In this document: piece after piece, positions 36,816 through 57,037 of the stretch | How the letters are laid out: each line of letters begins with the position of its first letter | Numbering within the stretch: the stretch's first letter is position 1 | Notes under the pieces: generated by a model | Databases searched by the model: none | What the model was told of the DNA's origin: nothing | Seen by the model: the letters and a program-made list of their open reading frames with translations, nothing else | Position numbers and translations under genes: made by a program | Assembly: GCA_049679665.1 (NCBI GenBank) | Contig: JBAUGL010000066.1 | Span: 3,550-67,549 of the forward strand | DNA: 64,000 bases | Direction of reading: 5' to 3' | From: Pyrinomonadaceae bacterium | GTDB taxonomy: Bacteria; Acidobacteriota; Blastocatellia; Pyrinomonadales; Pyrinomonadaceae

Positions 36816-36844
36816 TTGACACTAAATCACGCTTAACTTAGGAT
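36816..36844 (+). promoter_or_regulatory. Candidate sigma70-type promoter of the nuo operon (TTGACA-N17-TAGGAT)
   Basis: TTGACA at 36816-36821, 17-nt spacer, TAGGAT at 36839-36844, about 90 nt upstream of nuoA. Pattern match only. Confidence 0.3.
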
Positions 36845-36937: not shown

Positions 36938-37426
36938 ATGTCTGATTTCAACGTATTTGATTACGTGCCGATCGTCATAATGTTTCTGGTCGCAATCGGA
37001 TTTGCTGGGAGCCAGTTGCTGGTGACGCAATTGATCGGCCCGCGAAAACGAACAGCGACGAAATTGATGCCCTACGAATGCGGCAAGGACCCGGTCGGTT
37101 CTGCGCGTTCGCGATTTTCGATCAAGTTTTATACCGTAGCGGTCATTTTCCTTTTATTCGATATCGAAGTTTTGTTTATGATTCCGTTCGCGGTTGCATT
37201 TAAGACACTTCTTGCCGAAGAAAAGATCAGCGGCATTGCCTTCGGAACCATCGCGCTTCTGGAAATACTTGTTTTCATAGGAACACTGATTGTTGGGTAT
37301 ATATATGTGTGGCGAAAAGGCACATTTGATTGGGGGGTTCAGGCCCGTGCCGAAGCGCGCGCCCAGGCGAAGATAATGGCGAATAAAAAGCGCAAAGAGG
37401 ATATCGAGGTAAAAAAAGCAGCTTAG
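36938..37426 (+). CDS. nuoA: NADH-quinone oxidoreductase subunit A (with charged C-terminal extension)
   Basis: PYECG motif, three TM segments, first gene of the nuo block. Confidence 0.9.
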   Translation: MSDFNVFDYVPIVIMFLVAIGFAGSQLLVTQLIGPRKRTATKLMPYECGKDPVGSARSRFSIKFYTVAVIFLLFDIEVLFMIPFAVAFKTLLAEEKISGIAFGTIALLEILVFIGTLIVGYIYVWRKGTFDWGVQARAEARAQAKIMANKKRKEDIEVKKAA

Positions 37427-37450
37427 CGGTGTTTGATTGGAATCTAAATC

Positions 37451-38098
37451 ATGGGGTTAGAGAATAAAATATTTGAATCATTGCCGGATGTTGTAACCGT
37501 CAAGCTGGATGCGGTTGTAAACTGGGCCCGAAAGTCCAGTCTTTGGCCGGCGACGTTTGGACTGGCTTGTTGTGCGATCGAGATGATGAATACTGTCTCG
37601 GCCCGGAACGACCTTTCGCGCTTCGGTGCGGAAACGTTTCGTGCGAGCCCGCGGCAGGCGGATGTGATGATCGTCTCAGGGCGTGTTTCACGTAAGATGG
37701 CACCGGTCCTACGGCGGATCTACGACCAAATGCCTGAGCCGAAATGGGTTATCTCGATGGGCGCCTGCGCTACCTCGGGCGGCGTTTTCGATAATTACGC
37801 TATCGTCCAGGGCGTCGACAAGATCGTTCCAGTGGACATATACGTTCCGGGATGCCCGCCTCGTCCGGAAATGCTCGTGCACGCGATAATGATGCTCCAA
37901 GACAAGATAATGAAGGAATCGGTCAAGGATCGCCTGGATACATTTGAACCGGAATCACGCGTTTCCATTGTTCCAGGCACTCTGCCCGTCACTGAAGGAA
38001 CCGCTCTTGAACGCAAAACTGAGATCGAAGTCGCGCAGAATAATGTCTCAAGACCTTATTCGATCCCTTCGAGACACGAGCGCCGACGATCGTCATAA
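37451..38098 (+). CDS. nuoB: NADH-quinone oxidoreductase subunit B
   Basis: N2 cluster ligand motifs [26 protein letters not shown]. About 50 aa of C-terminal extension. Confidence 0.95.
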
Positions 38099-38117
38099 AC
38101 ATCTGATACTGCCTGAA

Positions 38118-38600
38118 ATGAATATCAAAGATTTGCTCGGCTTCGTCGACGCCTTAAAGACCGAGAACACAGCGTGGGTGAGTGAGGTCAAAGACGCGCT
38201 TGGCGAGGTGACGATTACGGTTCCCAGGGAAGCGATCGTCGATGTCTGCTGGGTGCTTAAAACGCAGCACGGTTTCGATATGCTGGCCGATCTTTGCGGC
38301 GGCGATCGCGGGCCGGAAGAAGACCCGCGGTTCGAGGTCAATTATCATGTGTTCTCCACGCGACACTACAATCGTTTACGTTTAAAGGTGTTGCTCTCCG
38401 AAGACGATCCGCTCGTTACCACAGTCACGACCGTGTGGAAAACTGCCGATTGGCACGAGCGCGAAACTTACGACCTTTTGGGTATTAAATTTGATGGGCA
38501 CCCCGACTTACGCAGGATCCTTCTGCCGTCGGATTTTGATGGCCATGCTTTGAGGAAGGATTATCCTTTACGAGGTTACGAGCCGTACAGCATGAATTAA
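38118..38600 (+). CDS. nuoC: NADH-quinone oxidoreductase subunit C
   Basis: WHERETYDLLGIKFDGHPDLRRILL signature. Start at ATG 38118 avoids overlap with nuoB; 38043 is an alternative. Confidence 0.85.
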   Translation: MNIKDLLGFVDALKTENTAWVSEVKDALGEVTITVPREAIVDVCWVLKTQHGFDMLADLCGGDRGPEEDPRFEVNYHVFSTRHYNRLRLKVLLSEDDPLVTTVTTVWKTADWHERETYDLLGIKFDGHPDLRRILLPSDFDGHALRKDYPLRGYEPYSMN

Positions 38601-38654
38601 GTATCACGGACCAATAGTCCGTCGCGACGGCGCTAGCAGCTGTCGTATGTTTTT

Positions 38655-39875
38655 ATGAGCATTTCCGTGGACAGAATTCCGGCACAATTCGAAGTGATCG
38701 ACGGCTCTCTAGATTCACAGATGACACTTTCGATGGGGCCGCAGCACCCTTCGACCCACGGGGTTTTGCGACTGGATCTGAGGCTCGACGGCGAGCTGGT
38801 TGTCAAGGCTATTCCCGACATAGGCTATCTGCATACGGGAATGGAGAAGCTCTTTGAATACAAGAAATACCAGCAGGGTATCGTCATAACGGATCGGATG
38901 GATTATCTTAATCCGCTTGGCAATAACCTTGCGTATGTGATGGCCGCCGAAAAGCTTCTGCAGCTTGAAATACCCGAACGGGCACAGGTCGTCCGTGTGC
39001 TGATGTGTGAACTGCAGCGTATTGCCTCGCATATGGTCTGGTTGGGTACGAGCGCTCTCGATCTCGGCGCGATGAGCGTGTTCTTCTTCTGTTTCAAGCA
39101 GCGCGAAAAGATACTTAACCTTATCGAATCGGCCTCAGGCGGCCGAATGACGCCCAGCTATTTCCGTATCGGCGGACTAATGATGGATCTCCCGGCGGGA
39201 TTCGAACGCCGCTGCAACCAGTTCATGGCCGATTTTCCGGAAGCACTAAGTACCTTTGATACGCTTGTCACCGGGAACACAATTTGGCAAAGCCGAACGA
39301 TGGGGATCGGCGTGATCTCGGCCGAAGAAGCGATCTCATGGGGACTGACGGGGCCGAGCCTTCGCGGAAGCGGGGTTGAACTCGATCTTCGCCGTCACAA
39401 CCCCTATACCGGTTACGAAACTTACGATTTCGACATTCCCACGGAGCCCGACGGCGACGTCTGGTCGCGATTTCGTGTACGTATGCGGGAACTCGACGAA
39501 TCATACAAGATCGTTCGTCAGGCGCTCGAACGCCTGAAGCCCGGCCCGATCAAGGCGGACTCGCCTAAAGTCGTACTACCCGACCGCGACGATATGCGCA
39601 AGCATATGGATTCGCTGATCCATCACTTCCTGATCGTTGCCGAAGGATTTAACGTGCCCGAGGGTGAGGTTTATATGGCGATCGAGGCTTCAAAAGGCGA
39701 ACTCGGTGTCTACATGAAGTCCAACGGCGGCCCGAAGCCGGAACGCGTCCACTTCCGCGGCCCAAGCTTTGTAAATCTTTCGGCGTTGCCCGTGATGAGC
39801 GAAGGAGAGATGGTAGCTGACGTGGTGGCGATAATCGGAAGCCTGGATATTGTGCTTGGAGAGATAGATCGATAG
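38655..39875 (+). CDS. nuoD: NADH-quinone oxidoreductase subunit D
   Basis: MGPQHPSTHGVLRL, GYLHTGMEK, and a C-terminal DIVLGEIDR ending. Confidence 0.97.
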   Translation: MSISVDRIPAQFEVIDGSLDSQMTLSMGPQHPSTHGVLRLDLRLDGELVVKAIPDIGYLHTGMEKLFEYKKYQQGIVITDRMDYLNPLGNNLAYVMAAEKLLQLEIPERAQVVRVLMCELQRIASHMVWLGTSALDLGAMSVFFFCFKQREKILNLIESASGGRMTPSYFRIGGLMMDLPAGFERRCNQFMADFPEALSTFDTLVTGNTIWQSRTMGIGVISAEEAISWGLTGPSLRGSGVELDLRRHNPYTGYETYDFDIPTEPDGDVWSRFRVRMRELDESYKIVRQALERLKPGPIKADSPKVVLPDRDDMRKHMDSLIHHFLIVAEGFNVPEGEVYMAIEASKGELGVYMKSNGGPKPERVHFRGPSFVNLSALPVMSEGEMVADVVAIIGSLDIVLGEIDR

Positions 39876-39881
39876 AACAGT

Positions 39882-40229
39882 ATGGCGGGAGAATACGACG
39901 AGAAATTCGAGCAACTTACAACCGTGATTTCGAGAGTTGTCGGCCGGGTAGACGAACTACGTCTTGAAATGCGTGATATGAGCAGCGAACTGCGATCTAA
40001 TACGACGCAGTTAGGATCGGTTACGACGGCGCTAGGATCGGTTAAAACGGAGCTAAGATCGGTTAAATCGGAACTAGGATCGGTTACGACGCGTCTTGGA
40101 TCGCTTGAAAGTAAAGTCAACTTACTTTCGGCACAGTTCACCGATGTCGCCAGCATGGCGATCAAGGACCATCCGAGGATCGACAACCTTGAACAACGCG
40201 TCGGTGCTCTCGAATCAGAAACACATTGA
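39882..40229 (+). CDS. Small heptad-repeat coiled-coil protein of unknown function inserted between nuoD and nuoE
   Basis: 115-aa ORF 6 nt after the nuoD stop. Its stop overlaps the nuoE ATG (TGATG). Core is LRSNTTQ-LGSVTTA-LGSVKTE-LRSVKSE-LGSVTTR-LGSLESK. Confidence 0.6.
   Translation: MAGEYDEKFEQLTTVISRVVGRVDELRLEMRDMSSELRSNTTQLGSVTTALGSVKTELRSVKSELGSVTTRLGSLESKVNLLSAQFTDVASMAIKDHPRIDNLEQRVGALESETH
39990..40115 (+). repeat. Six tandem 21-bp units (consensus about CTAGGATCGGTTACGACGNNN) encoding heptads
   Basis: Read directly from the sequence. Units start at 39990, 40011, 40032, 40053, 40074 and 40095. Confidence 0.9.
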
Positions 40230-40759
40230 TGGCAACAGCAGCCCCCACAACTTTTACAGATCAGATCGAATACTCCGAAGAAGTAGCGGAGTTTTCGCCG
40301 GATATCATCGATGAAATGTACGGCCACCTCGCTAAGTACCCGCCAGAGCGGAGCCGTTCTGCTTTGATACCGCTCTTGACGCTGGTCCAGCGTGAACGTG
40401 GATGGATAGACAACCCGGGTGTGAATTTCCTCGCAAAATTCCTCGGACTGCATGTTACCGATGTTTGGGAAACGGCGACGTTCTATTCGATGTTCAATCT
40501 GCGCCCAGTGGGCCGCCACCACATCCAGATCTGCAAGACGCTCTCGTGCAAGATCATGGGCGAGCCCGAGATCACCGATCATATCTGTAAAAAGATCGGT
40601 ATTCACCCTGGCGAAACAACCGAGGACGGCAAGTTTACCGTCACGATGGTCGAATGCCTCGGAAGCTGCGGTACGGCGCCGATGATGCAGATCGGGTTTG
40701 ATTATCACGAGGACCTGACAACGAAGAAGGTAGATGAGATTTTGGATTCGTGTCAGTAG
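40229..40759 (+). CDS. nuoE: NADH-quinone oxidoreductase subunit E
   Basis: Thioredoxin-like 2Fe-2S motifs ICKTLSC ... ECLGSCGTAP and the YP...SALIPLL N-terminal region. Confidence 0.93.
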   Translation: MATAAPTTFTDQIEYSEEVAEFSPDIIDEMYGHLAKYPPERSRSALIPLLTLVQRERGWIDNPGVNFLAKFLGLHVTDVWETATFYSMFNLRPVGRHHIQICKTLSCKIMGEPEITDHICKKIGIHPGETTEDGKFTVTMVECLGSCGTAPMMQIGFDYHEDLTTKKVDEILDSCQ

Positions 40760-40814
40760 GTTGGATGTGTCAGTAGCTCGCACGTGTCAGTAGCCCGCAC
40801 GTGAGTAAGGGCTC
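40751..40814 (+). repeat. REP-like cluster: TGTCAGTAG x3 at 17-nt spacing, the third extending into a full unit GTGTCAGTAGCCCGCACGTGAGTAAGGGCTC
   Basis: Copies at 40751, 40768 and 40785. The first copy supplies the nuoE Cys-Gln-stop codons. Confidence 0.75.
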
Positions 40815-41370
40815 GACATATATCTCGTTCAACGTTATTTTGACTACTCGCGACTACATAGAGTTTCAGGATCGTTCGGTAGCAAAAGGGTATTTGATAA
40901 CATTCCGGTGCTACGGAACATGGCTGCACGGAGACGAACAAGGCTCCGTCGATCGACGATGGCACAACACGTATGGCACTACGATGATCAAGCCTGACGC
41001 CGAAAAAGTTAGTCGAAAGGCGAGCCAATTAAAGAGCGAGACTTTTCTGCTGCGCGGACGCGAGCGAAAAGTCGTTGAAGAAGCGATCAGAGAAGTCTGC
41101 GATGTTCGGGGATACGGATTATTCGCTGTGAACGTGAGGACCAATCACGCTCACTCGGTCGTTAGTAATTCCGATAAACCGGAACGATTGATGAATAGCT
41201 TTAAGGCGTATTCTACTAAGGCTCTAAGAACTGCCGGTTTACTCGCAGCCGACGCTCGGGCATGGAGCCGTCATGGAAGCACGAGATATCTCTGGACAGA
41301 CGACCACATTTCAGCGGCGGTTGACTATGTAGTCAACGGGCAGGGCGGTGACTTGCCGAAGTTTGAATAG
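40801..41370 (+). CDS. IS200-like / REP-associated tyrosine transposase (RAYT, HUH-Y1 family)
   Basis: YLITFRCYGTWLHGD N-terminal strand, HUH motif VRTNHAHSVV, catalytic-Tyr region WSRHGSTRYLWTDDHISAAVDYV. GTG start lies inside a REP unit, so the start is uncertain. Confidence 0.8.
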   Translation: MSKGSTYISFNVILTTRDYIEFQDRSVAKGYLITFRCYGTWLHGDEQGSVDRRWHNTYGTTMIKPDAEKVSRKASQLKSETFLLRGRERKVVEEAIREVCDVRGYGLFAVNVRTNHAHSVVSNSDKPERLMNSFKAYSTKALRTAGLLAADARAWSRHGSTRYLWTDDHISAAVDYVVNGQGGDLPKFE

Positions 41371-41375
41371 TAGTT

Positions 41376-41508
41376 GTGTCAGTAGCCCGCACAGTAAGTA
41401 GGGACTCAACGTAGAGCTAGATAACGTTGGCCACCACGCTCGACCACGTTACCTGATATTGACTTATGAATGAACTTGAGCCCTTACTTACGTGCGGGCT
41501 ACTGACAC
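41376..41508. repeat. REPIN-like inverted pair of the same REP unit
   Basis: Direct unit at 41376-41407 (GTGTCAGTAGCCCGCACAGTAAGTAGGGACTC). Inverted unit at 41478-41508 (reverse complement GTGTCAGTAGCCCGCACGTAAGTAAGGGCTC). Spacer is 70 nt. Confidence 0.75.
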
Positions 41509-41559
41509 GAGGATTTGACGACTGAAAAGGTGGATAAGATTTTGGAGGAATGTCAATGA
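41509..41559 (+). pseudogene. Orphan copy of the nuoE 3' terminus (encodes EDLTTEKVDKILEECQ-stop)
   Basis: Hand alignment to 40708-40758 gives about 36/51 nt and 12/16 aa identical. It ends in an ATGA overlap with the next ORF. Confidence 0.65.
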
Positions 41560-41915
41560 GGGAAGGAACTCAAACGATAGCAAATCAGCAACCCACAAAT
41601 GTCTTTGTCGCTTTCGAGATGCTTCTTGAGGAAATAGAGGCGGAGGTCGAAATCGTAAATCGAGCAGGTGGAAGGGCGTTCGAGCGAGGGAACTATGAAG
41701 ATACCCGCGCAATTCTCGAACGAGCTGGCGTGGTCACAAGTTTCCGGGATCGGACTGATGCGTTGCGTCGCGATTGGGATAGCTTCTTCGCTTCAGCCGA
41801 AGCCAAGGAAGATGTTGAGACGCTCGCTGAACGGCGAAATCTTGGACGCCTATCACGAGGATTGAGGACGCCTGAGCAGGCGTACAATCGACCAATTCTT
41901 GAGGTACTGAACTAG
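41550..41915 (+). CDS. Hypothetical protein, N-terminal fragment of a winged-helix protein; ends at an in-frame TAG
   Basis: ATG at 41550 or 41556. The C-terminus ...RTPEQAYNRPILEVLN looks like the opening helix of an Mrr_N-type winged helix that continues in the next ORF. Confidence 0.5.
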   Translation: MSMREGTQTIANQQPTNVFVAFEMLLEEIEAEVEIVNRAGGRAFERGNYEDTRAILERAGVVTSFRDRTDALRRDWDSFFASAEAKEDVETLAERRNLGRLSRGLRTPEQAYNRPILEVLN

Positions 41916-42152
41916 ATGGGCGGCAGGGGGCCAATGAGCGAGGTACTCGACAAAGTTCAAGTCAAGTTGGGTGGTGTGCTAAAAGACGTGGACTTCGAAC
42001 CGTTGGCATCCGACACCAATATTCTTCGTTGGCGAAATGCAGCCCAGTGGGCAAGGAATACGCTGGTTAAGGAAAGGCTGCTTAAGAATGATAGTCCACG
42101 AGGAACTTGGGAAATCACTGAAGCAGGTACTAAGGCCCTACGCGAAACATAA
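41916..42152 (+). CDS. Mrr_N-like winged-helix domain fragment, same frame as the preceding ORF
   Basis: GGRGPMSEVLDKV...LRWRNAAQWARNTLVKERLLKNDSPRGTWEITEAG matches the Mrr N-terminal wHTH pattern. Its stop overlaps the nuoF ATG (TAATG). Confidence 0.55.
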   Translation: MGGRGPMSEVLDKVQVKLGGVLKDVDFEPLASDTNILRWRNAAQWARNTLVKERLLKNDSPRGTWEITEAGTKALRET

Positions 42153-43459
42153 TGGAAATCAAAGCAATTGGCTGTGAGCCGCTTCAGTTGAAGCGAATGC
42201 ACATCAAGGATGGGCACACGCTAAAGGTGTATCGCGAAACGGGCGGTTACAAGACGCTCGAAAAGGCGCTCAAGATGGCGCCGGCGGATATTATCGAAGA
42301 GGTGAAACTGTCAGCGCTGAGAGGGCGTGGCGGTGCCGGATTCCCGACCGGGATGAAATGGTCGTTTGTTCCAAAAGATTCGCCGAAGCAGAAATATATC
42401 GTCTGCAACGCCGACGAGTCAGAGCCTGGCTCATTCAAAGACCGGTATTTGATGGAACGCGACCCGCATTCAATGATCGAAGGGATGATCATCGCCGCGT
42501 ATACACTTGGTTCGCAGACGGGCTACATTTATACACGCGGCGAATATAAGTACCTGATCGATATTATGGATGCCGCCCTTGCCGAGTGCCGCGAAGCCGG
42601 CATTCTCGGCAAAAACATCTTCGGCTCGGATTTTTCGTGCGATATTCATACGCACACCGGCGCCGGTGCTTATATCTGCGGTGAAGAAACGGCATTGCTC
42701 TCGAGCCTTGAAGGGTTTCGAGGTCATCCGCGGATGAAGCCTCCGTTTCCGGCCGTCGAGGGTCTGTATGCATCGCCGACGATCGTAAATAATGTCGAAA
42801 CATTCACCTCGATCCCGCAGATCATCGAAATGGGTGGAATTGCCTGGCGCGATCTTGGCACGGAAAAATCGGGCGGGACAAAGCTTTGGTCTATCAGCGG
42901 ACACGTTAAGAAACCGGGCGTTTACGAGCTTCCGATGGGCTACGCCGATATGGAAAAGTTCATCTTCGAGGATTGCGGCGGGATGCTTCGCGACGATAAG
43001 AAGCTCAAGGCGGTCATCCCAGGCGGTTCGAGCGTTTACATAATGAATGCCGGCCAGATTCTCGGCAAAAACGTCACGCTGGATTACGAGGGCCTTGTCG
43101 CAGCGGGCTCGATGCTTGGCACGGGCGGGATGATGGTTATGGATTCCACGGTCGATATTATGGAATCGACCAAGAATCTGTCGGAGTTCTATAAACACGA
43201 ATCGTGCGGTTGGTGTACCCCATGCCGCGAAGGAACGGATTGGCTCGTCAAAATTTTCGACCGCATTGCATCAGGCGGCGGACGCCCCGAGGATGCACAG
43301 CTGCTGCTCGACATCTGCGACAACATCGAAGGCAAAAGCTTTTGCCCGCTAGGTGATGCGGCCGCATGGCCGGTCCAAAGCGCGATCAAACAGTTTCCGG
43401 ATGATTTTAGGAAGTGGCTCGTCGATAATACGAATGGCGATATCGTTGCAAATGTTTAA
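42152..43459 (+). CDS. nuoF: NADH-quinone oxidoreductase subunit F
   Basis: GRGGAGFPTG (FMN), CNADESEPG, GAGAYICGEETAL (NADH), and the N3 cluster motif ESCGWCTPCREG. Confidence 0.96.
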   Translation: MEIKAIGCEPLQLKRMHIKDGHTLKVYRETGGYKTLEKALKMAPADIIEEVKLSALRGRGGAGFPTGMKWSFVPKDSPKQKYIVCNADESEPGSFKDRYLMERDPHSMIEGMIIAAYTLGSQTGYIYTRGEYKYLIDIMDAALAECREAGILGKNIFGSDFSCDIHTHTGAGAYICGEETALLSSLEGFRGHPRMKPPFPAVEGLYASPTIVNNVETFTSIPQIIEMGGIAWRDLGTEKSGGTKLWSISGHVKKPGVYELPMGYADMEKFIFEDCGGMLRDDKKLKAVIPGGSSVYIMNAGQILGKNVTLDYEGLVAAGSMLGTGGMMVMDSTVDIMESTKNLSEFYKHESCGWCTPCREGTDWLVKIFDRIASGGGRPEDAQLLLDICDNIEGKSFCPLGDAAAWPVQSAIKQFPDDFRKWLVDNTNGDIVANV

Positions 43460-43517
43460 CTTCGTGTTCGAAACTGTCAATACGATTTATGTTTTTCACT
43501 AAAATAGGGAGGATGCT

Positions 43518-44411
43518 ATGAAACAACTTAGACTTCTTGTACTGCTGATGTTGGGTCTCTTGCTTTTTTCTGGGATTATCTCGGCGCAAAACAATCAGGT
43601 CATCATATACAACGATTTCAATTTTCAGGGTGCCAACATAGCTCTTACAGGAAACTGGAACGGAACGGGTGGCTTTGACCGGAACATAAAGTCGGTCCGC
43701 ATTCCCCAGGGGTACAGGGTGACCATGTTCCAAGAGAAGAATTTCAGGGGAACGTCGACGGGGGTTATGACGGAAGACTGGAACCCAGGCCGGGGTGCCC
43801 ACTGGATCAACCGGGTTCGTTCGATCCGGGTCGAAGGTGGATACGCTCCTCCGCCGACTCCGGGCGATTTCCCTGTGATTTACGCCCAGGCGAATTACCA
43901 GGGGCCGGCTGAAGCGATAGAAAACGGCTATGCCGGACGGCGTGACTGGGAAGGCTCGCCTCATCGAATCCGATCGATCCGTGTGCCTGCCGGCTGGAAA
44001 CTTACGCTATATACACTGCGGAATTACACCGGGCAGCAAACCACGGTCACATCCAGTATATCGTGGGTTCCCGGCGATTGGTGGAGCGGGAAAGTTCGTT
44101 CGATACGAGTTGAACGTACCGGCGGCGGCACAACTCCGGGCGGTTCCGTTGTGATCTATGCCCAAAACAACTATAACGGCCCAGCCATGGCCGTCGATCG
44201 CGACTGGCCGGGCAATCGTGATTGGGACGGCAGGCCGCACAGGATTCGTTCCATCCGGGTGCCGCAGGGTCGACCAATTATGGTTTATGAAAAGACAAAT
44301 TACCGCGGCAGGTCATATCTCGTGACATCGGACTGGGCGCCGCAGCCGGGCGATTGGTGGTTCGGTCGGATCCGTTCGATCAAACTCAATCCGGGGCCAC
44401 AGCCTAGATAG
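43518..44411 (+). CDS. Secreted protein with three beta/gamma-crystallin-type domains
   Basis: GGGAGGA Shine-Dalgarno sequence and signal peptide MKQLRLLVLLMLGLLLFSGIISAQ. Three units of the form (V)IYxxxNYxG...IRSIRVPxG...(Y/F)xxxNYxG...VRSIRV. Confidence 0.8.
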   Translation: MKQLRLLVLLMLGLLLFSGIISAQNNQVIIYNDFNFQGANIALTGNWNGTGGFDRNIKSVRIPQGYRVTMFQEKNFRGTSTGVMTEDWNPGRGAHWINRVRSIRVEGGYAPPPTPGDFPVIYAQANYQGPAEAIENGYAGRRDWEGSPHRIRSIRVPAGWKLTLYTLRNYTGQQTTVTSSISWVPGDWWSGKVRSIRVERTGGGTTPGGSVVIYAQNNYNGPAMAVDRDWPGNRDWDGRPHRIRSIRVPQGRPIMVYEKTNYRGRSYLVTSDWAPQPGDWWFGRIRSIKLNPGPQPR

Positions 44412-44432
44412 TACTAACAAAAGTTAGTGTCG

Positions 44433-44460
44433 CGGGAGCCATCGTGAAGCATGGCTCCCG
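44433..44460 (+). other. Strong 10-bp hairpin after the crystallin gene (possible U-tract-less terminator or processing site)
   Basis: CGGGAGCCAT / ATGGCTCCCG with an 8-nt loop. A second small hairpin GCAAA/TTTGC follows at 44461-44478. Confidence 0.4.
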
Positions 44461-44509
44461 GCAAATTGTAAAGTTTGCGACCAACCGGGATATTTTGATG
44501 CAGTTCAAT

Positions 44510-45781: not shown

Positions 45782-45824
45782 GTAGTATTTCTGATTCAAC
45801 AGTTTTGATAGAGAGGTAATAATT

Positions 45825-45968
45825 ATGGGAAAAGGCGATAAAAGATCACGAAAGGGAAAGATCGTAACTGGTAGTTTCGGTAAAACCAGACCGAAGAAAA
45901 AGAAGGCTCACAGCGCGGAAGTCGTTGCTGATGCCAAAGCGAAGAAAAAGAAAGAAGCCTCAGGTTAA
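45825..45968 (+). CDS. 30S ribosomal protein Thx (bTHX), 47 aa; absent from the ORF track
   Basis: MGKGDKRSRKGKIVTGSFGKTRPKKKK closely parallels Thermus Thx ([26 protein letters not shown]). GAGAGG Shine-Dalgarno sequence 8 nt upstream. Confidence 0.85.
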   Translation: MGKGDKRSRKGKIVTGSFGKTRPKKKKAHSAEVVADAKAKKKKEASG

Positions 45969-45982
45969 GGTAACAGTTTTCA

Positions 45983-48256: not shown

Positions 48257-48262
48257 TTCGCT

Positions 48263-49351: not shown

Positions 49352-49367
49352 CCGTTGAAATCTTGTA

Positions 49368-49952
49368 ATGGCTACTAACGTTCTATTTTTTCTGTTTGCA
49401 GGCTTGGCGATCGGGTGCGCACTATCGATGGTCTACCATAAGAATCCGCTCTACAGCGCTATTTCTTTGGTAGGTGTTTTTATCTCATTGTCGTGTCTAT
49501 ACGTGACTCTTGCAGCCCCGTTCATTGCTGCCGTTCAATTGCTGATATACGCCGGCGCGATAATGGTATTGGTTGTCTTCGTAATAATGTTGCTAAACCT
49601 TGACGAAGAAAATCGCGACAACCGATTGCGTTACTTATATTTTCTAGGCGGAGCATTGGGCGTGGTACTTCTCGGTCAAACTTTGTTCATATTTTATGCG
49701 GTCTTGAAGGCACCGAAACACACCGTCGAACAATCGGAAACTGTCGGTAAAACCCTGAGCATCGGCACGGCAATGTATACCCAATACCTTCTGCCGGTCG
49801 AAATAGTTGGAATATTACTCTTGATGTCGATCATCGGCGGCGTGGTCCTCTCCAGGCATTTGACTCATCGGCAGCTTGAGTTGGTAGTGGAAAATGAACT
49901 TGACCGACGGAATCAAGAGAGTGAGACAGGAGACTATCGCACCGCGCTGTAA
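49368..49952 (+). CDS. nuoJ: NADH-quinone oxidoreductase subunit J
   Basis: [10 protein letters not shown]...[23 protein letters not shown], typical of NuoJ. Starts 16 nt after the nuoH stop. Confidence 0.93.
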
Positions 49953-49962
49953 CAACAATAAG

Positions 49963-50268
49963 ATGGAACCAAGCTTAGCAAGTTATTTGGCATTATCGGG
50001 CATCCTGTTTGCGATCGGTGCCGTCGGCGTTATCTTTAAGCGCAATGCGTTGGGTATGTTCATGTGCATCGAGCTTATGCTCAACGCAGTAAACCTCACC
50101 TTCGTGGCATTTTCGCGGTACTACGCGGATGTCACTGGCCAGTTGTTCGTATTTATGGTTATGAGTGTGGCCGCGGCTGAGGCGGCCGTAGGCCTCGGGA
50201 TAATAATCACGTTCTTCCGTAACCGCCAGTCGGTGGATGTCGACGACGCGAGCATATTGAAAAATTAG
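49963..50268 (+). CDS. nuoK: NADH-quinone oxidoreductase subunit K
   Basis: 101-aa protein with three TM segments, [11 protein letters not shown] and AAAEAAVGL motifs. Start at ATG 49963. Confidence 0.93.
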
Positions 50269-50349
50269 TGATGGATCGATGCGTGAACAAAGCTTCCGAA
50301 TGTGCATAGGCCGCATCGTACGGCAGCGGTCAGTTAGAGTTTTAGGTCG

Positions 50350-50982
50350 ATGTTAAATGCCGATGTTTTGACATTTCAGGAGTTTGCGATGCATGAACCG
50401 CTTCCGTTATCAAAGATTCAAGGAGCTGTGCTCGAATTTTTGCAAGGGCGGGACGATGCGGTTCTGTTCGGAGCACAGGCCGTAAATGCATATGTCAGCG
50501 AACCGCGTGCTACTCAGGATGTCGACATTATATCCACGCGTGCGATTGAGTTCGCGGAAGAGTTGCGTGAGCATCTTAGCGAAACGTATCATATCGCGAT
50601 TCGTGTTCGCGAAGTTGGTGGCCGAGGGTTAAGGCTTTATCAGGTCCGAAAAGAAGGAAACCGTCATTTGGTTGACGTGCGGATCGAGAATACGCTCCCG
50701 GCGACCGAGGAAATCGAAAAGATTCGCGTATTGACGCCGGTCGAATTGATTGTGAGCAAAGTGATCTCGTATCAATCGCGTCGTGGAAAGCCTAAATCCG
50801 GAACCGACTGGCGAGATCTAGCTATGCTTCTTGTCAGGTTTCCTGAGCTTAAAGTAGCTGATGGTGATGTAGGAAAGATTCTTTTGGAACGTAATGTCGA
50901 TGAAAACGCGGTCAAATTTTGGAACGATTTGGTTCAACAAGATTTTTCGCTCGATGACGAAGACGATGATCTGAGTTTTTAG
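50350..50982 (+). CDS. Nucleotidyltransferase-fold protein (AbiEii/MNT-like) inserted between nuoK and nuoL
   Basis: Pol-beta NTase motif FGAQAVNAYV...RATQDVDII plus the downstream SGTDWRDLAMLL motif. Acidic C-terminal tail. No cognate antitoxin-like neighbour. Confidence 0.6.
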   Translation: MLNADVLTFQEFAMHEPLPLSKIQGAVLEFLQGRDDAVLFGAQAVNAYVSEPRATQDVDIISTRAIEFAEELREHLSETYHIAIRVREVGGRGLRLYQVRKEGNRHLVDVRIENTLPATEEIEKIRVLTPVELIVSKVISYQSRRGKPKSGTDWRDLAMLLVRFPELKVADGDVGKILLERNVDENAVKFWNDLVQQDFSLDDEDDDLSF

Positions 50983-50983
50983 A

Positions 50984-53215
50984 ATGACTGAGAATAACCT
51001 TTTAAGTCTAATAATTTTCGCGCCGCTTGCTGGTGCCCTCATCAACTGGCTGATCGGCGGGCGGCTAAAGAATGAATCATTCAGCGGCCTTGTCGCATGC
51101 GGAAGCATTGCTGTTTCTATGATCGTCGCGTTTATGATCGCATTCGGTATCGGAACTCCGCACGTCGGGGCCCTCGTAGCTCCGGAAGGCAAACCTGTCC
51201 TCGATCATCTATGGACATGGATAAATGTCGGCGGATTTCGGGCCGATTTCGGTCTCGGGATGGACCGGCTTTCCGGTATTTACGCGTGTTTTGTTACATT
51301 CGTCGGCCTTTTGATCCATATATTTGCGACGGGTTATATGCGGGGAGACAAGGGTTTCTACCGCTTTTTCGCATACTTGAACCTGTTCATGTTCTCGATG
51401 CTGACGCTCATTTTGGCGGATAATTTTCTGCTGATGTTCGTCGGTTGGGAAGGAGTTGGCCTCTGTTCGTATCTCCTTATCGGCTATTATCTGAAAAAAG
51501 ATGAGGCTCGCGAAGCCGCCAAGAAGGCTTTCGTGATGAACCGGATCGGCGATTGGGGAGTGCTCATCGGGATATTTCTTATCTTTACGCTTACAGGATC
51601 GATCTCGTTTTATGACAAGACTGTTGACGGAACTCCTGTAGCAAGCGCGCTGAACATTTTCGCCCAAATGTCGGCGGATCCGTTCACGCTCGGATCGATC
51701 GTGGCCGGCGGGATCACGTCCGTTGCCGTGCTTTTATTCATAGGAGCCACCGGTAAATCTGCTCAAATTCCGCTTTTCACATGGCTGCCCGACGCGATGG
51801 CCGGCCCGACGCCCGTTTCGGCACTGATCCACGCGGCGACGATGGTTACCGCGGGCGTTTATATGGTCGTCCGCTGCAATGCGATCTATCAAAACGCGCC
51901 CACAGCAATGTTTATCGTGGCTATCATTGGATGCGCGACGGCCATATTTGCCGCAACGATCGGACTTGCTCAAAACGATATCAAGAAAGTTCTCGCGTAC
52001 TCGACCGTTTCTCAGCTCGGCTATATGTTCCTTGCGTGCGGTGTCGGGGCATTTGTAGCCGCTATCTTTCACGTGATGACCCACGCGTTCTTCAAGGCGC
52101 TTCTGTTTCTCGGTTCGGGCTCAGTTATACACGGTATGCATCACGAGCAGGATATGCGTCGGATGGGCAACCTGCGCAAATTCATGCCCGTCACGTTCAT
52201 CACGATGATGATGGGTTGGCTTGCGATCTGCGGAATCCCGATCTGGGCCGGCTTTTTCTCAAAGGACGAGATCCTTTATAAGACGTTTGCCGCTCCGAAT
52301 ATCCCAGAACCGTGGAATTATGTTTTGTGGGTCGTCGGATTGATCACTGCAGTTCTCACGGCTGCGTATATGACGCGGATGATGTGGATGACATTTTTCG
52401 GTGAGGAGCGATTTCACGAGGATATTGCCGAAGTACACGCCTATGCTGCTCAGACTGACGAGCATTCCGATTCGCATACGCAAGATGACGATGAAGATCA
52501 TCACCACGCCTTACCGCACGACTTTAAGCCTCACGAATCGCCGTGGACGATGACCGTCCCATTGATCGTTCTTGCATTTTTGTCGACCGTTGGCGGCCTT
52601 GTCGGCGTGCCGTATGCGATGAGTTCTCTGTTCGGGGCCGGTGATGTCAACGTTTTTGAACACACACTTGAGCCGGTTATCGCGAAGGTCGGAAATAGTG
52701 CCGCGAAGGATGCGCATTCCGCGGCGCCTGCGAAGGACGTACAAAGCCCCTCGGTAAAGCACTTTTACGGATCCGCGCCGGCTGCAGCTGCAGCATCTGC
52801 GACAGAATCACATGACGCGCATTCTCCGGAAGAGATTCGCACCGAACGGCTCCTCGCGGTCCTTTCCGTTTTACTTGCGTTATCGGGTATCGGCATCGGT
52901 TTTGCGTTATTCGGGAAGACCCCGCTTCGTAAATTGCCGAAGATACTCGAAGAAAAATGGCGTATCGACGAGTTATATAACGGATATATCGTCGACCCCA
53001 TAACGACTCTTTCGCGAAATGTGCTCTGGAAAGGGATCGATCTAGGATTTGTCGACGGTATCGTGAACGGGATCGGCCATTTCGTCACGTCACTCGGCTC
53101 ATTATTTAGAACAATTCAGGTAGGGTTTGTTCGCAGTTACGCGGCATTTATTCTCGCCGGGGCCCTCGTATTGATCGGGTATTTTATGTATTTTGGGTTT
53201 AAGCTGATCGGATAG
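50984..53215 (+). CDS. nuoL: NADH-quinone oxidoreductase subunit L (with low-complexity His/Asp- and Ala/Ser-rich inserts)
   Basis: VGWEGVGLCSYLLIGYY, KSAQIPLFTWLPDAMAGPTPVSALIHAATMV. At 743 aa it is longer than typical. Confidence 0.95.
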   Translation: MTENNLLSLIIFAPLAGALINWLIGGRLKNESFSGLVACGSIAVSMIVAFMIAFGIGTPHVGALVAPEGKPVLDHLWTWINVGGFRADFGLGMDRLSGIYACFVTFVGLLIHIFATGYMRGDKGFYRFFAYLNLFMFSMLTLILADNFLLMFVGWEGVGLCSYLLIGYYLKKDEAREAAKKAFVMNRIGDWGVLIGIFLIFTLTGSISFYDKTVDGTPVASALNIFAQMSADPFTLGSIVAGGITSVAVLLFIGATGKSAQIPLFTWLPDAMAGPTPVSALIHAATMVTAGVYMVVRCNAIYQNAPTAMFIVAIIGCATAIFAATIGLAQNDIKKVLAYSTVSQLGYMFLACGVGAFVAAIFHVMTHAFFKALLFLGSGSVIHGMHHEQDMRRMGNLRKFMPVTFITMMMGWLAICGIPIWAGFFSKDEILYKTFAAPNIPEPWNYVLWVVGLITAVLTAAYMTRMMWMTFFGEERFHEDIAEVHAYAAQTDEHSDSHTQDDDEDHHHALPHDFKPHESPWTMTVPLIVLAFLSTVGGLVGVPYAMSSLFGAGDVNVFEHTLEPVIAKVGNSAAKDAHSAAPAKDVQSPSVKHFYGSAPAAAAASATESHDAHSPEEIRTERLLAVLSVLLALSGIGIGFALFGKTPLRKLPKILEEKWRIDELYNGYIVDPITTLSRNVLWKGIDLGFVDGIVNGIGHFVTSLGSLFRTIQVGFVRSYAAFILAGALVLIGYFMYFGFKLIG

Positions 53216-53226
53216 GGTTCTACCAT

Positions 53227-54834
53227 ATGGATTTCATTTCTGAAAATCTTTTGACAATACTTATTTTGCTGCCGGTCTTCGGTGGACTGCTTGCGCTCGG
53301 CCACCAGATGTTTTGGAAACACGAACAACAGACAAAATGGATCACTCTCGGCTTTACGATCGTCAACTTTCTGATCTCACTGCTGCTTTTGGCCGACAAT
53401 GGGGTGGTTTCTGCGGCTGGGTTTTCGTTTGAGAGGAATGTGCCTTGGATCTCGGCGATCAACACTAATTACCACGTTGGTGTGGATGGACTAAGTATTT
53501 GGCTGGTGCTGTTAACCACGTTCATTATGCCGATCTCAGTGATCTCGGCTTGGAACGCGATTGAAAAATGGCCGACCGCTTTTTTTGTTTTCCTGCTTCT
53601 TCTCGAAAGTGCGATGATCGGCGTATTCGTATCGCTCGATCTGCTCGTTTTTTATCTGTTTTTCGAAGCGTCACTCGTGCCGATGTTCTTCCTAATTGGC
53701 ATCTGGGGTGGTCAGAACCGTATTTATGCCGCCGTCAAGTTTTTCATATTTACGGCACTCGGCAGCTTGCTCATGCTTGCGGCTATCATAGTCCTTTATT
53801 ACCTCCATGCTGATGCAACCGGGATCGGGTCGTTCGATTTTGTAACACTCCTTAATTCCCTTAAGATCGGTAATCTTGTGCTTGCTCCGCAGACCGGAAT
53901 GCTTTTGTTCCTGGCATTTGCGCTTGCGTTCTCTATCAAGGTTCCCATCTTTCCGTTCCATACTTGGCTGCCCGATGCGCATACTGAAGCTCCGACGGCT
54001 GGTTCGGTGATCCTGGCAGCGATCCTTTTGAAAATGGGCACTTACGGCCTAATGCGATTCAATTTCGCTTTTTTCCCTGAAGCGTCACGCGAGCTCGCCT
54101 GGATATTCATTATTCTCGCGATCATCGGGATCATTTATGGGGCCCTCGTCGCGATGGTACAGCCGGATATGAAGCGGCTTGTCGCTTATTCATCGGTCGC
54201 TCATATGGGGTTTGTGATCCTCGGGATGTTCTCGTTTACGGAATGGGGAATGCAAGGTGCACTTTACACCATGCTGGCCCACGGCGTTTCGACCGGAGCG
54301 CTATTCTTGCTTGTCGGATTTATTTATGAACGCCGGCATACCAGAGAGATCAAAGATTTCGGCGGCCTTGCGAATGTAATGCCAGTCTACGCGACGCTCT
54401 TCGTGATCACGACCATGGCGTCCATAGGCCTGCCGTTTCTCAATGGATTCGTAGGGGAATTCCTGATAATGGTTGGAATGTGGAAGTCGCAAATCTTGCT
54501 GATAACCGACGGTGTTAACTGGAACTATATCGCTACGATGTTTGCCGGCAGCGGTGTCATCTTCGCAGCTGTCTATCTGCTGTGGATGGTTCAGCGCGTC
54601 TTCTTCGGCAAGGTCACGAATCCGAAAAACAAGTTCCTCGGCGATCTGAGCTGGCGAGAGATCGGGTTGATGGTTCCTCTCCTTTTTCTAATGATTTATA
54701 TGGGTGTCTATCCGCGGCCGATCTTAGATTTGTCCGAAAAAAGCATCAACGCGATCAAGGAACGGGTTATGCATCAAGCAGGCGGAAGCGTCGACCACGC
54801 AAATGAAGGGGCCCGAGAGGTCATCGGCAATTGA
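53227..54834 (+). CDS. nuoM: NADH-quinone oxidoreductase subunit M
   Basis: KVPIFPFHTWLPDAHTEAPTAGSVILAAILLKMGTYG. Confidence 0.95.
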   Translation: MDFISENLLTILILLPVFGGLLALGHQMFWKHEQQTKWITLGFTIVNFLISLLLLADNGVVSAAGFSFERNVPWISAINTNYHVGVDGLSIWLVLLTTFIMPISVISAWNAIEKWPTAFFVFLLLLESAMIGVFVSLDLLVFYLFFEASLVPMFFLIGIWGGQNRIYAAVKFFIFTALGSLLMLAAIIVLYYLHADATGIGSFDFVTLLNSLKIGNLVLAPQTGMLLFLAFALAFSIKVPIFPFHTWLPDAHTEAPTAGSVILAAILLKMGTYGLMRFNFAFFPEASRELAWIFIILAIIGIIYGALVAMVQPDMKRLVAYSSVAHMGFVILGMFSFTEWGMQGALYTMLAHGVSTGALFLLVGFIYERRHTREIKDFGGLANVMPVYATLFVITTMASIGLPFLNGFVGEFLIMVGMWKSQILLITDGVNWNYIATMFAGSGVIFAAVYLLWMVQRVFFGKVTNPKNKFLGDLSWREIGLMVPLLFLMIYMGVYPRPILDLSEKSINAIKERVMHQAGGSVDHANEGAREVIGN

Positions 54835-54859
54835 ATTACGAATATAAAGCTCGAATCAA

Positions 54860-56404
54860 ATGAATACGATCTTATTAGCAGATATTGTTAATCCCAATGC
54901 AGATATAGGGTCCATCCTGCCCGAATTGATCGTTGCCGCAACCGGCGTGATCGTGATGCTCTACGACAGCTTTTTTCCAAGAGATCGGACCATAACCAGC
55001 GTCATCTCGCTTCTCGGGATTGTCGTATCCGCGGTGGTGCTCACTATGTTGTGGTCGGCCGGAAACACGGCGCCCGCTTCATCGTGGAATGGAATGATCG
55101 CGACCGATAATTTGCGGCTTGCGTTTTCTTTTGTGTTCCTGCTGGTTACCGCCCTGACGATCTTGATCTCTACGGTTTGGGTCGAACGCGAAGACGTCCC
55201 TGTCGGTGAGTACCATGCGCTTCTATTGTTCGCGACATTCGGGATGATGCTGATGGCCTCGGGTAACGATATGGTCGTGCTGTTTCTTGGCCTTGAGACA
55301 TCGTCGATCGCCACCTATGTAATGGCGGGGCTCAGAAAGACCGATCTCCGATCCAACGAATCCGCTATGAAATATTTTATTTTGGGTTCGTTCGCATCTG
55401 CATTTCTACTTTATGGTATGGCCTTGGTTTACGGAGCAACGGGTTCAACCAATATTCCCGAGATCGCGGCCAAAATATCTAACCCTAACTTCCCTGCGCT
55501 TCTGCTTGTCGCTGCAGCTATGATGATCGTCGGCTTCGGGTTCAAGGTCGCAACCGTCCCCTTTCACGTGTGGACACCGGATGTCTACGAGGGCGCACCT
55601 TCCGCGATAACAGGATTTATGGCAACTGGGCCAAAATCAGCCGCATTCGCCTCATTCCTCCGTGTTTTTGTGATCGGTTTTCCGCTGGTCGCGGGCGTAA
55701 AGGCATCGGGCTTTCTTCACGAAACTTGGATCACGACACTCGCGATCATGGCGATATTTTCAATGACCATCGGGAACGTTGCCGCAATTCTCCAAAATAA
55801 TGTGAAGCGAATGCTCGCCTATTCTTCGATAGCGCATGCGGGTTATGCACTGGTCGGCTTTATCGGGGCCGGTGTCGCCGTTTCGGTCCAGGGAAGGGAC
55901 GAAGCCGTGGCTGCCGTTGCTTTTTATTTACTGGCGTATGCAATAACAAATATTGGAGCCTTTGCGATCGTGACACTGGTTGGTCAGAAGAATGACCGCC
56001 GGGCCGAGTTTGATGACTACAACGGTATAGGTTTTCGGTCGCCGGTTATCGCCTTTAGCCTTGCCTTATTTATGCTCAGCCTTATGGGCCTCCCGCTAAC
56101 GGCCGGGTTTATGGCTAAAGTGCTTGTGTTTCGTCCGGCGCTCGAGAACGGGGAACCGCTGCTGGTCATTCTCGTGGTCGCGGCAGTGGTGAACACCGTT
56201 ATTTCGGCTTATTATTACCTTCGTCTCATTGTCGTAATGTTCTTCCGAGATCGAACGACGCAATGGATTGAACCGCGGATGACCATCGGTATGGCGACAG
56301 CGCTCGTTATCGCGGTCATGGGGGTCTTTTACCTCGGGATCTTTAGCGATCAATTGATAAGCAAATTTTCTGAAACGGTACCGTCACAGGTGCTTTTGAA
56401 ATAG
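54860..56404 (+). CDS. nuoN: NADH-quinone oxidoreductase subunit N
   Basis: KVATVPFHVWTPDVYEGAPSAITGFMATGPK and YSSIAHAGY. Confidence 0.95.
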   Translation: MNTILLADIVNPNADIGSILPELIVAATGVIVMLYDSFFPRDRTITSVISLLGIVVSAVVLTMLWSAGNTAPASSWNGMIATDNLRLAFSFVFLLVTALTILISTVWVEREDVPVGEYHALLLFATFGMMLMASGNDMVVLFLGLETSSIATYVMAGLRKTDLRSNESAMKYFILGSFASAFLLYGMALVYGATGSTNIPEIAAKISNPNFPALLLVAAAMMIVGFGFKVATVPFHVWTPDVYEGAPSAITGFMATGPKSAAFASFLRVFVIGFPLVAGVKASGFLHETWITTLAIMAIFSMTIGNVAAILQNNVKRMLAYSSIAHAGYALVGFIGAGVAVSVQGRDEAVAAVAFYLLAYAITNIGAFAIVTLVGQKNDRRAEFDDYNGIGFRSPVIAFSLALFMLSLMGLPLTAGFMAKVLVFRPALENGEPLLVILVVAAVVNTVISAYYYLRLIVVMFFRDRTTQWIEPRMTIGMATALVIAVMGVFYLGIFSDQLISKFSETVPSQVLLK

Positions 56405-56410
56405 GAATTG

Positions 56411-57037
56411 ATGTACCGAGACGTCGATATCGAGACTTGGCCGCGTCGTACGGCATTTGAGTATTTTAGGGATTACGACGACCCATTTTTTAATATTGCG
56501 GCTAATTTAGATGTCACACAGCTTTATGCATACGTAAAAGACTCCCGGCTCTCATATGCTTTAGCAGCGCTGTTTTATTCCCAGGAAAGTGCAAACGAGA
56601 TACGGGAATTCAAGATCAGACTCCTGAATGACCGGCCGGTCGAATGTGATTCGGTACACGCCACACAGACCATCCTGAATCCGGACGAATCGTTTTCGTT
56701 TTGTTATTTTGAGAATCGAACGGATGTGTTCGAATACGTTCGGTATGGACGTGAGGCGACTGCGATATATAAAGAGCGGAAGACATTCGATGTCGAAAGC
56801 GGTCGATTGGATCTGATCTATTATTCAGTAATTCCATGGATTTCGTTTACAAGCTTTAAGCACGCGAGCCGAATAGATAATCGCCAAACGGTACCTAGGA
56901 TCGTTTTTGGCAAAATATTCGATTCGGGTCCCTTAAAACTGATGCCTGTCTCGGTGGAGGTCAACCACGCGATAATGGACGGACTTCATGTAGGCAAGTA
57001 CTTTGCGAGCTTTCAGGATAAGATCCGTTCGCTTTGA
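56411..57037 (+). CDS. Type-A chloramphenicol O-acetyltransferase (CAT) family protein
   Basis: DIETWPRRTAFEYF opening and catalytic-His region VEVNHAIMDGLHVGKYF (compare HHAVCDGFH). Length of about 208 aa. Starts 6 nt after the nuoN stop. Confidence 0.85.
   Translation: MYRDVDIETWPRRTAFEYFRDYDDPFFNIAANLDVTQLYAYVKDSRLSYALAALFYSQESANEIREFKIRLLNDRPVECDSVHATQTILNPDESFSFCYFENRTDVFEYVRYGREATAIYKERKTFDVESGRLDLIYYSVIPWISFTSFKHASRIDNRQTVPRIVFGKIFDSGPLKLMPVSVEVNHAIMDGLHVGKYFASFQDKIRSL

Follow-up and report, generated by a model that had tools for sequence, protein, structure and literature searches.

Teaching usually presents the operons of essential multi-subunit enzymes as compact. Melo and colleagues are said to have reported in 2005 that the nqo genes for complex I of Rhodothermus marinus are split into several units, with some subunit genes standing alone and genes foreign to complex I co-transcribed; these extra genes, a pterin dehydratase and an antiporter, are reportedly few, and a functional link to the enzyme is said to have been proposed. 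Extra, unrelated open reading frames (ORFs), there termed URFs, have been known since the 1990s within the complex I clusters of Paracoccus denitrificans (nqo) and Rhodobacter capsulatus (nuo), and complex I is recorded as unaffected when they are disrupted (PMC1959517, which cites Dupuis et al. 1998 and Xu et al.). Here we describe the complex I (nuo) cluster of a soil acidobacterium of the Pyrinomonadaceae (Acidobacteriota, Blastocatellia), contained in a stretch of 64,000 nucleotides (the window; contig JBAUGL010000066.1 of assembly GCA_049679665.1), in which the nuo genes at 36938-57037 of the + strand alternate with unrelated genes. Across the family, this essential operon tolerates up to ~7 kb of such genes, among them toxin-antitoxin pairs, nucleases, secreted enzymes and the cell's only gene for the ribosomal protein Thx.

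The explanation that we favour, and hold to be probable, is that of a single intact nuo operon, with 13 genes in a row, which has served as a long-lived collector of passenger genes in Pyrinomonadaceae, the passengers being transcribed by read-through and acquired by insertions that duplicate the ends of nuo genes.

Occupied junctions in the nuo clusters of Pyrinomonadaceae

A search with NuoG yielded 80 species-representative Pyrinomonadaceae loci (71–76% identity), which were taken with 10-kb flanks and together with the window make up 81 loci. All 81 share the order A-B-C-D-E-F-(Thx)-G-H-J-K-L-M-N, without nuoI, and their spacing varies widely, the distance from nuoA to nuoN ranging from 15.4 to 22.0 kb in the 36 complete loci. 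Junctions, named here by their flanking genes (E/F and so on), were scored as occupied when the gap was at least 250 nt. On this scale inserts are most frequent at E/F (55 of 66 loci), K/L (44 of 59) and D/E (38 of 58), followed by Thx/G (33/73), F/Thx (28/69), M/N (19/45), G/H (15/79), L/M (14/49), C/D (11/56), J/K (10/67) and B/C (6/54), and they are absent from A/B (0/51) and H/J (0/71). The 426 insert ORFs fall into 130 sequence clusters that are distributed patchily on the NuoG tree; among clusters with at least two members, 329 ORFs share the strand of nuo, compared with 13 on the opposite one. Four other families of the class supplied outgroups: their seven nuo clusters, five of them complete and two partial, are compact and lack both Thx and nuoI, and an eighth outgroup locus (L102) gave a nuoG match only.

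Insertion into the nuo operon is family-wide, old and still ongoing. An initial annotation of the window had presented the interruptions as the peculiarity of one operon, a view that the 81 loci do not bear out; the comparison of synteny across the family, which it had proposed as a check, shows a fixed nuo order, variably filled junctions and inserts whose ages can be mapped.

Representatives of the insert families comprise an LCAT-type lipase, DUF1579, a Uma2 nuclease, a SnoaL-like protein, HicA/HicB, an S26 signal peptidase and SIMPL, and further DUF1684, TonB_C, GNAT, PPIase, DUF1272 and an aspartyl protease, together with a weak, sub-threshold BrnT-like match. Many passengers are envelope or exported proteins (TonB_C, S26, SIMPL, PPIase). 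Copies of Uma2, HicA and HicB occupying the same junction are 74–81% identical, and those at different junctions 26–44%, even within one genome; this low identity across junctions rules out hopping of HicAB or Uma2 from one junction to another. Two lineages of Uma2, ~26% identical, are found in loci L010–L089, one at C/D and the other at J/K and often together in one genome, with 74% identity across genomes within one junction. At F/Thx these loci carry a secreted lipase-like hydrolase of either LCAT type or LIP type, similar in size. That the two types are one diverged gene was considered and rejected, as BLASTP found no similarity between them (E 1.8), and they count as separate occupants.

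The lengths of long conserved clusters were compared in one sample of 40 Pyrinomonadaceae genera. The ribosomal cluster from S10 to L17 spans 16.8–18.6 kb in 30 genomes (standard deviation, sd, 0.37 kb; coefficient of variation, CV, 0.021), and the dcw cluster from rsmH to ftsZ spans 14.6–17.2 kb in 24 genomes, with two modes (sd 0.96, CV 0.059). The corresponding values for nuoA to nuoN are 15.0–22.3 kb in 23 genomes (sd 1.85, CV 0.106). The ATP synthase operon gave no measurable span as a control, atpB and atpC lying on different contigs or far apart in the family. Hence nuo clearly tolerates more variation than either of the two other long clusters compared, and two controls make no genome-wide rule.

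Genes in the window were taken from an ORF listing and Pfam scans, their boundaries were read base by base, and copy number was determined by tblastn in the source genome (3.4 Mb in 162 contigs, 98.7% complete). The order on the + strand is nuoA-B-C-D, a coiled-coil gene, nuoE, a RAYT-like gene in a repetitive extragenic palindromic (REP) unit, a winged helix-turn-helix (wHTH) gene of Mrr_N type split by a TAG codon, nuoF, a crystallin gene, a hydrolase gene, Thx, nuoG-H-J-K, a nucleotidyltransferase (NTase) gene, nuoL-M-N and a CatA-like O-acetyltransferase (CAT) gene:

36938-37426, + strand: nuoA (PF00507, E 3.9e-32), single copy
37451-38098, + strand: nuoB (PF01058, E 3e-31)
38118-38600, + strand: nuoC (PF00329, E 1.8e-44), starting at the ATG 19 nt past the nuoB stop
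38655-39875, + strand: nuoD (PF00346, E 2e-112), the genome's only nuoD
39882-40229, + strand: passenger 1, coiled-coil protein of 115 aa with heptad repeats, sub-threshold coiled-coil Pfam matches only
40229-40759, + strand: nuoE (PF01257, E 4.9e-52), its last 54 nt (40706-40759) being the intact copy of a duplicated segment
40766-41509, + strand: passenger 2, RAYT/REP unit with a Y1 HUH transposase-like gene at 40801-41370 (PF01797)
41506-41559, + strand: relic of the nuoE end, comprising the stop and the 17 codons before it; identity to 40706-40755 is 76% over 50 nt
41550-42152, + strand: passenger 3, wHTH protein (Mrr_N) of ~200 aa, PF14338 on the second half, in-frame TAG at 41913-41915
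42152-43459, + strand: nuoF (PF01512, PF10589)
43518-44411, + strand: passenger 4, beta/gamma-crystallin (PF00030, E 3.4e-25) with three repeats
44433-44460, + strand: G+C-rich hairpin without U-tract between crystallin and hydrolase, from a fold test
44444-45781, + strand: passenger 5, lipase-like alpha/beta hydrolase (LIP type), likely start ATG 44510 (PF03583, 24.7 bits, cut-off 23)
45825-45968, + strand: ribosomal protein bTHX, Thx (TIGR04560, 47.2 against 26; PF17070, 36.1 against 29.7)
45983-48256, + strand: nuoG (PF13510, PF10588, PF22117, PF00384)
48263-49351, + strand: nuoH (PF00146, E 1.3e-121), the genome's only nuoH
49368-49952, + strand: nuoJ (PF00499), 16 nt past nuoH
49963-50268, + strand: nuoK (PF00420), start read from the boundary
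50350-50982, + strand: passenger 6, AbiEii-like NTase (PF08843, 28.4 bits, cut-off 22.5)
50984-53215, + strand: nuoL (PF00361, PF00662)
53227-54834, + strand: nuoM (PF00361)
54860-56404, + strand: nuoN (PF00361)
56408-57037, + strand: trailing passenger, CatA-like O-acetyltransferase (PF00302, E 6.2e-27)

All 13 nuo genes of the window have full-length Pfam matches. They do not form one compact cluster, nine non-nuo genes lying between or after them and nuoI being unlinked as well, and the core set nuoA-N is complete and intact once the unlinked nuoI is counted. Pfam upheld every nuo gene and insert in the order initially read, and all inserts are on the + strand as had been stated; that order was right for the 13 nuo genes and skipped the absent nuoI without comment. 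The compact 14-gene operon to which the locus had been compared as the canonical form is not universal (PMC1959517). Upstream of nuoA, thiS and thiG are encoded divergently on the − strand, and downstream the + strand run extends beyond CAT by three more ORFs, to ~59165. Scans of 35500-59500 found no Rfam families and no tRNAs.

Every nuo gene and every passenger is present in a single copy in this genome (tblastn). nuoI is absent between nuoH and nuoJ (49352-49367), and its sole copy, which matches TIGR01971 with 134.7 bits (cut-off 113), stands solitary on another contig between a DUF4190 gene and an M78-peptidase gene (G000:C94:20205-20723, − strand). As in the window, nuoI is unlinked in all 71 related loci covering H/J and in the seven outgroup nuo clusters covering that junction; its unlinking is class-wide. 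Larger-genome genera (G031, G034, G038, G045, G049, G058, G064, G065 and others) carry a second nuo cluster, with NuoA and NuoN ~40% identical to those of the first, a span of 19–27 kb and a position a few kb from atpB. This second cluster is lacking in the genome of the window and in small-genome relatives.

Age and entry of the passengers

Insert clusters were mapped on the NuoG tree rooted with the outgroups to give the ages of the passengers. Intact full-length orthologues were used as the sign of selection in place of dN/dS, since synonymous sites are saturated at 71–76% NuoG identity. The coiled-coil gene, NTase and Thx, plus SnoaL, S26, SIMPL and DUF1684, are old, being spread over the whole family with differential loss, and CAT too counts among the old inherited residents. 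Crystallin, hydrolase and wHTH are shared with few relatives, and the RAYT/REP unit is the youngest insert. Most of the inserts in the window (the coiled-coil gene, NTase, Thx and CAT) are inherited residents rather than recent arrivals.

The coiled-coil gene belongs to a 33-member cluster of homologues at the same junction, D/E, the window copy included. It contains a 21-nt tandem array (heptads) at 39966-40110; its homologues at D/E measure 68–174 aa and some loci hold two copies, suggesting that the repeat has expanded and contracted. Full-length orthologues of NTase, 58–80% identical, occupy K/L in 23 loci. PADLOC models for AbiEii match it weakly (E 5e-4), weak AbiEii and Mrr-type matches being all that PADLOC returned over the cluster, and no AbiEi wHTH antitoxin partner was found beside it, its neighbours being nuoK and nuoL and the 81-nt upstream spacer containing no ORF. 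CAT has orthologues after nuoN in 10 loci (57–68% identity); with scores of 101 against 270 for NF000491 and 106 against 300 for NF033155, it falls far below the NCBIfam equivalog cut-offs and is not assigned to type A CAT.

Thx is a fixed member of the operon in Pyrinomonadaceae, located between nuoF and nuoG in 76 of the 81 family loci and not in the outgroups, and in the window it is the genome's only Thx gene. Within the family it is always preceded by a strong Shine-Dalgarno sequence, often lies 18–47 nt past nuoF, and shows no other conserved upstream sequence. With the sole copy inside the nuo operon, the supply of this ribosomal protein seems to be tied to nuo transcription.

Orthologues of the hydrolase at F/Thx were found in L013 (76%), L106 (80.5%) and L077 (53%), and its cluster is also shared with L025. 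In L106, a metagenome-assembled genome (GCA_030856545.1), crystallin and hydrolase form a pair at the same junction (73% and 80.5%). A crystallin that is 72% identical stands free in L107 (10001-10864), between dprA and a lytic transglycosylase gene and with an upstream spacer of ~580 nt; the occurrence of this family both inside and outside nuo indicates that genes of this sort pass between the operon and ordinary loci. The wHTH frame is continuous across the TAG at 41913-41915, and intact homologues of 190–197 aa occur in many phyla. The closest of these (74%), also intact, sits at the nuoE-nuoF junction of a related contig with the same thiG-thiS-nuoA neighbourhood, separated from its neighbours by gaps of 3 and 0 nt and lacking the REP unit.

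The third-position G+C content (GC3) of the passengers averages 0.51, compared with 0.61 for the nuo genes. Low values are also found in old residents (coiled-coil gene 0.49, NTase 0.46, CAT 0.50, Thx 0.42), which fits weaker codon selection better than recent import, and crystallin (0.61) and hydrolase (0.59) are nuo-like.

At every occupied junction of the 81 loci we searched for a second copy of the end of a neighbouring gene, using 556 shuffled controls. Twelve junctions, including E/F of the window, score above the maximum of these controls. The relics are decaying second copies of the last or first 26–82 nt of the neighbouring nuo gene, and include the following cases:

L075, E/F: 80 nt, near-identical but for two single-base indels, flanking an ORF pair of 84 and 79 aa
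L050, K/L: the first 82 nt of nuoL with the ribosome-binding site, 88%
L069, Thx/G: 62/77
L088, D/E: 50/59, a TonB_C ORF closing with a NuoD C-terminus that Pfam recognises
L010, E/F: 47/52
L041, C/D: 26/26

In every scarred case the intact copy is that of the nuo gene, and the relic abuts an older or a new passenger. The recurrence of such end copies points to insertions that duplicate, and so preserve, the end of the nuo gene. The first ORF at E/F of L075 has a weak, sub-threshold match to BrnT toxin. In L088 (3057-4199) the last 25 residues of the TonB_C-domain ORF are a relic of the C-terminus of NuoD, its stop region borrowed from the duplicated end.

The scar in the window accompanies the RAYT/REP unit. 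REP copies lie at 40766-40783, 40783-40800 and 41375-41392, and another, in inverted orientation, at 41492-41508; the unit has 32-nt inverted arms that are 97% complementary, and the REP 17-mer occurs 17 times in the genome compared with 0 for the control. The RAYT-like gene matches PF01797 with 27.2 bits (cut-off 23) and NF047646 weakly, with 22 bits (cut-off 80), and its translation contains an H-A-H motif. It is single copy in its own genome, and none of the 80 related loci contains a homologue. The nuoE relic (41506-41559) immediately follows the right-hand REP, and its TGA overlaps an ATG of wHTH (ATGA). Taken with the REP-free contig that carries the closest wHTH gene, this overlap indicates an ancestral join nuoE-ATGA-wHTH, to which the REP unit was added later with a fresh nuoE end.

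In the mechanism that we propose, new DNA would enter by recombination anchored in the end of a nuo gene, duplicating that end. The candidate routes are homology-facilitated illegitimate recombination and single-crossover integration of a circle carrying the gene end, both of which are established mechanisms. The essential gene would stay intact, and the relic would provide the next gene with its ribosome-binding or coupling region. As long as the flanking copies are still alike the insert could be removed by recombination, and once they have diverged it would be locked in. Apart from such end-duplicating entry, no insertion into a spacer of few bases would leave the essential gene whole. The passengers would lack terminators and, for the most part, promoters of their own, would be read through from the nuo promoter or promoters, and would often be translationally coupled via TGATG, TAATG and ATGA joins. 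Only inserts in sense orientation that keep the flanking nuo frames whole would survive, giving rise to the strand bias, since antisense or terminator-bearing inserts would cut off the downstream nuo genes and be purged.

A bolder extension, which we put forward as a quite doubtful one, is that nuo gene ends act as attachment sites for integrase-free cassette traffic, an insert with a copy of a nuo gene end on either side looping out through host recombination, passing to a relative and re-entering the same end by a single crossover. If true, the complex I operon would be an integron without integrase, and this would account for the collection of genes by nuo operons in several phyla.

Transcription and alternative explanations

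The joins between passengers and nuo genes in the window are mostly tight. The coiled-coil gene follows nuoD after 6 nt and overlaps nuoE (TGATG), wHTH overlaps nuoF (TAATG), Thx is 14 nt from nuoG, NTase 1 nt from nuoL and nuoN 3 nt from CAT, in agreement with the stop/start overlaps or short gaps described at several inserts in the initial annotation. Wider spacers precede crystallin (58 nt), hydrolase (~98 nt), Thx (43 nt) and NTase (81 nt); in relatives NTase lies 3–14 nt after nuoK and ~5 nt before nuoL.

The best promoter-like site, at 36816-36844 on the + strand (TTGACA-17-TAGGAT), is located in the divergent spacer between thiS and nuoA, 94 nt before nuoA; with 10 of 12 positions matching it is the only site above 9/12, as a consensus match only. 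Consensus scans of the cluster found no excess of promoter- or terminator-like sites over shuffled sequences (10 promoter-like sites compared with 18.7), and counts at or below those of shuffles carry no weight either way. The hairpin at 44433-44460, in a spacer of 111 nt, has a minimum free energy of −34.9 and a z score of −3.84. It had been singled out as the sole terminator-like hairpin; it is real and indeed without a U-tract, but a further hairpin, of 8 bp, G+C-rich and followed by a T-run, occupies 38624-38654 in the spacer between nuoC and nuoD, reaching into the nuoD start codon. This second hairpin may act as an attenuator or mark a site of RNA processing.

The main rival explanation places internal promoters in the longer spacers, and such promoters may operate at some joins. 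Extended to the whole cluster, this explanation would replace the operon by separate same-strand units, each passenger, or the nuo block after it, having its own promoter, an arrangement that we regard as unlikely. The gaps of 58, ~98, 43 and 81 nt before crystallin, hydrolase, Thx and NTase would accommodate it, as would the hairpin at 44433-44460, the T-run hairpin before nuoD and the promoter-like matches of 9/12 at 40813, 45796 and 50988, and nuoI is transcribed apart in any case. However, promoter-like sites are rarer than in shuffles, the site at 45796 would start transcription within Thx, and upstream of Thx nothing is conserved but the Shine-Dalgarno sequence. Moreover, five passenger boundaries overlap or leave at most 6 nt, the same passengers lie 0–14 nt from both neighbours in relatives, and the strand ratio of 329:13 is what polarity would select. 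The two readings originally offered for the locus can be separated on these grounds: passengers riding on the operon fit better, given that 329 of 342 lie on the same strand and that joins leave no room for a promoter, while internal promoters are possible at the gaps of 58–98 nt.

Several points weigh against the single operon with passengers acquired through duplicated gene ends. Co-transcription is deduced from overlaps and tiny gaps and a strong nuo promoter is presumed, and the gaps of 58–98 nt before crystallin, hydrolase and NTase, together with the strong hairpin, make internal starts or partial stops possible. Since nuoI is expressed from elsewhere, the enzyme needs no single transcript. 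The 80 loci are relatives rather than independent samples, and most are metagenome-assembled. The recombination route is deduced only from the scars, and the 12 junctions that bear one make up less than half of those occupied. Finally, the two control clusters may for other reasons be under stronger constraint than nuo.

According to a different explanation, the conserved passengers (the coiled-coil gene, NTase, DUF1684, DUF1579, SnoaL-like and others) serve complex I as accessory subunits or assembly factors particular to this lineage, and stay in the operon because of that function rather than as riders. Their fixed junctions and intact frames across the family, as in the 33-member coiled-coil cluster and the 23 loci with NTase (58–80%), are consistent with such a role, and the complex I of Thermus has an unexpected extra subunit that is encoded outside its cluster (PMC1959517). 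Nevertheless, each of these genes is absent from many relatives with intact nuo genes, and the outgroups lack all of them. Their functions are miscellaneous (toxin-antitoxin modules, nucleases, secreted hydrolases, a signal peptidase), an equally similar crystallin stands free elsewhere, and disrupting the additional ORFs within the clusters of Rhodobacter and Paracoccus left complex I unaffected (PMC1959517). We therefore consider an accessory role very unlikely.

It is hardly credible that we are dealing with an assembly chimera or a paralogue in decay, with the working complex I genes elsewhere. The stop codon in one passenger, the lack of nuoI in the cluster and the draft state of the genome (162 contigs) speak for it, but the nuo genes are all single copy in a 98.7%-complete genome, those of the cluster all have full-length Pfam matches, and the same layout recurs in 80 independent assemblies, closed chromosomes included. 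The second, compact nuo operon that the initial annotation had envisaged as the functional one does not exist in this genome, which has one copy of each nuo gene.

Comparison with known systems

For the single passenger-collecting operon that we favour, the data offer a natural system, with insertions that are young, of middle age or old, each placed at a known junction and some still between duplicated ends. It raises the questions of how a tightly coupled operon can take in foreign genes and remain unbroken, what keeps them there, and whether or not they gain free expression. It also carries a warning for annotation, as a position inside the nuo cluster alone is no ground for assigning a role in complex I.

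Both the unit beside nuoE and the passengers as a whole resemble described elements. Like a REPtron, the former has a single-copy Y1 HUH transposase-like gene bracketed by an inverted palindromic repeat that is dispersed in the genome (17 copies); unlike a REPtron, it lies inside an essential operon, between the end of a nuo gene and the relic of that end, and its match to the RAYT model is weak (22 bits compared with 80). The passengers recall integron cassette arrays in being, apparently, promoter-less, unrelated genes on the same strand behind a resident promoter, differing between relatives. In contrast to integron arrays, insertion takes place at many junctions of an essential operon and not at one attI. 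The scars, being duplicated ends of host genes, point to host recombination rather than to a dedicated recombinase; the Pfam matches of the cluster ORFs suggest no integrase, though no search aimed at IntI or attC was made.

Our literature search found nothing specific on complex I of Pyrinomonadaceae or on recombination-scar insertions in operons. The passengers of the window's family are many, miscellaneous and variable, unlike the extra genes of Rhodothermus marinus. A close likeness is to the URFs of Paracoccus and Rhodobacter, which are likewise unrelated same-strand ORFs between complex I genes and differ between species. The present case differs from these in belonging to the Acidobacteriota, in having nuoI unlinked and a ribosomal protein gene embedded, and in its turnover over ~80 relatives, ~130 insert families and recombination scars, none of which the search found described for the alphaproteobacterial clusters. 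Passenger-bearing complex I clusters were therefore already known, and the locus described here is an example in Acidobacteriota. What it adds to them is a dense comparative series, an embedded sole Thx gene, the class-wide unlinking of nuoI and recurrent end-duplication scars that provide a concrete, testable route of entry.

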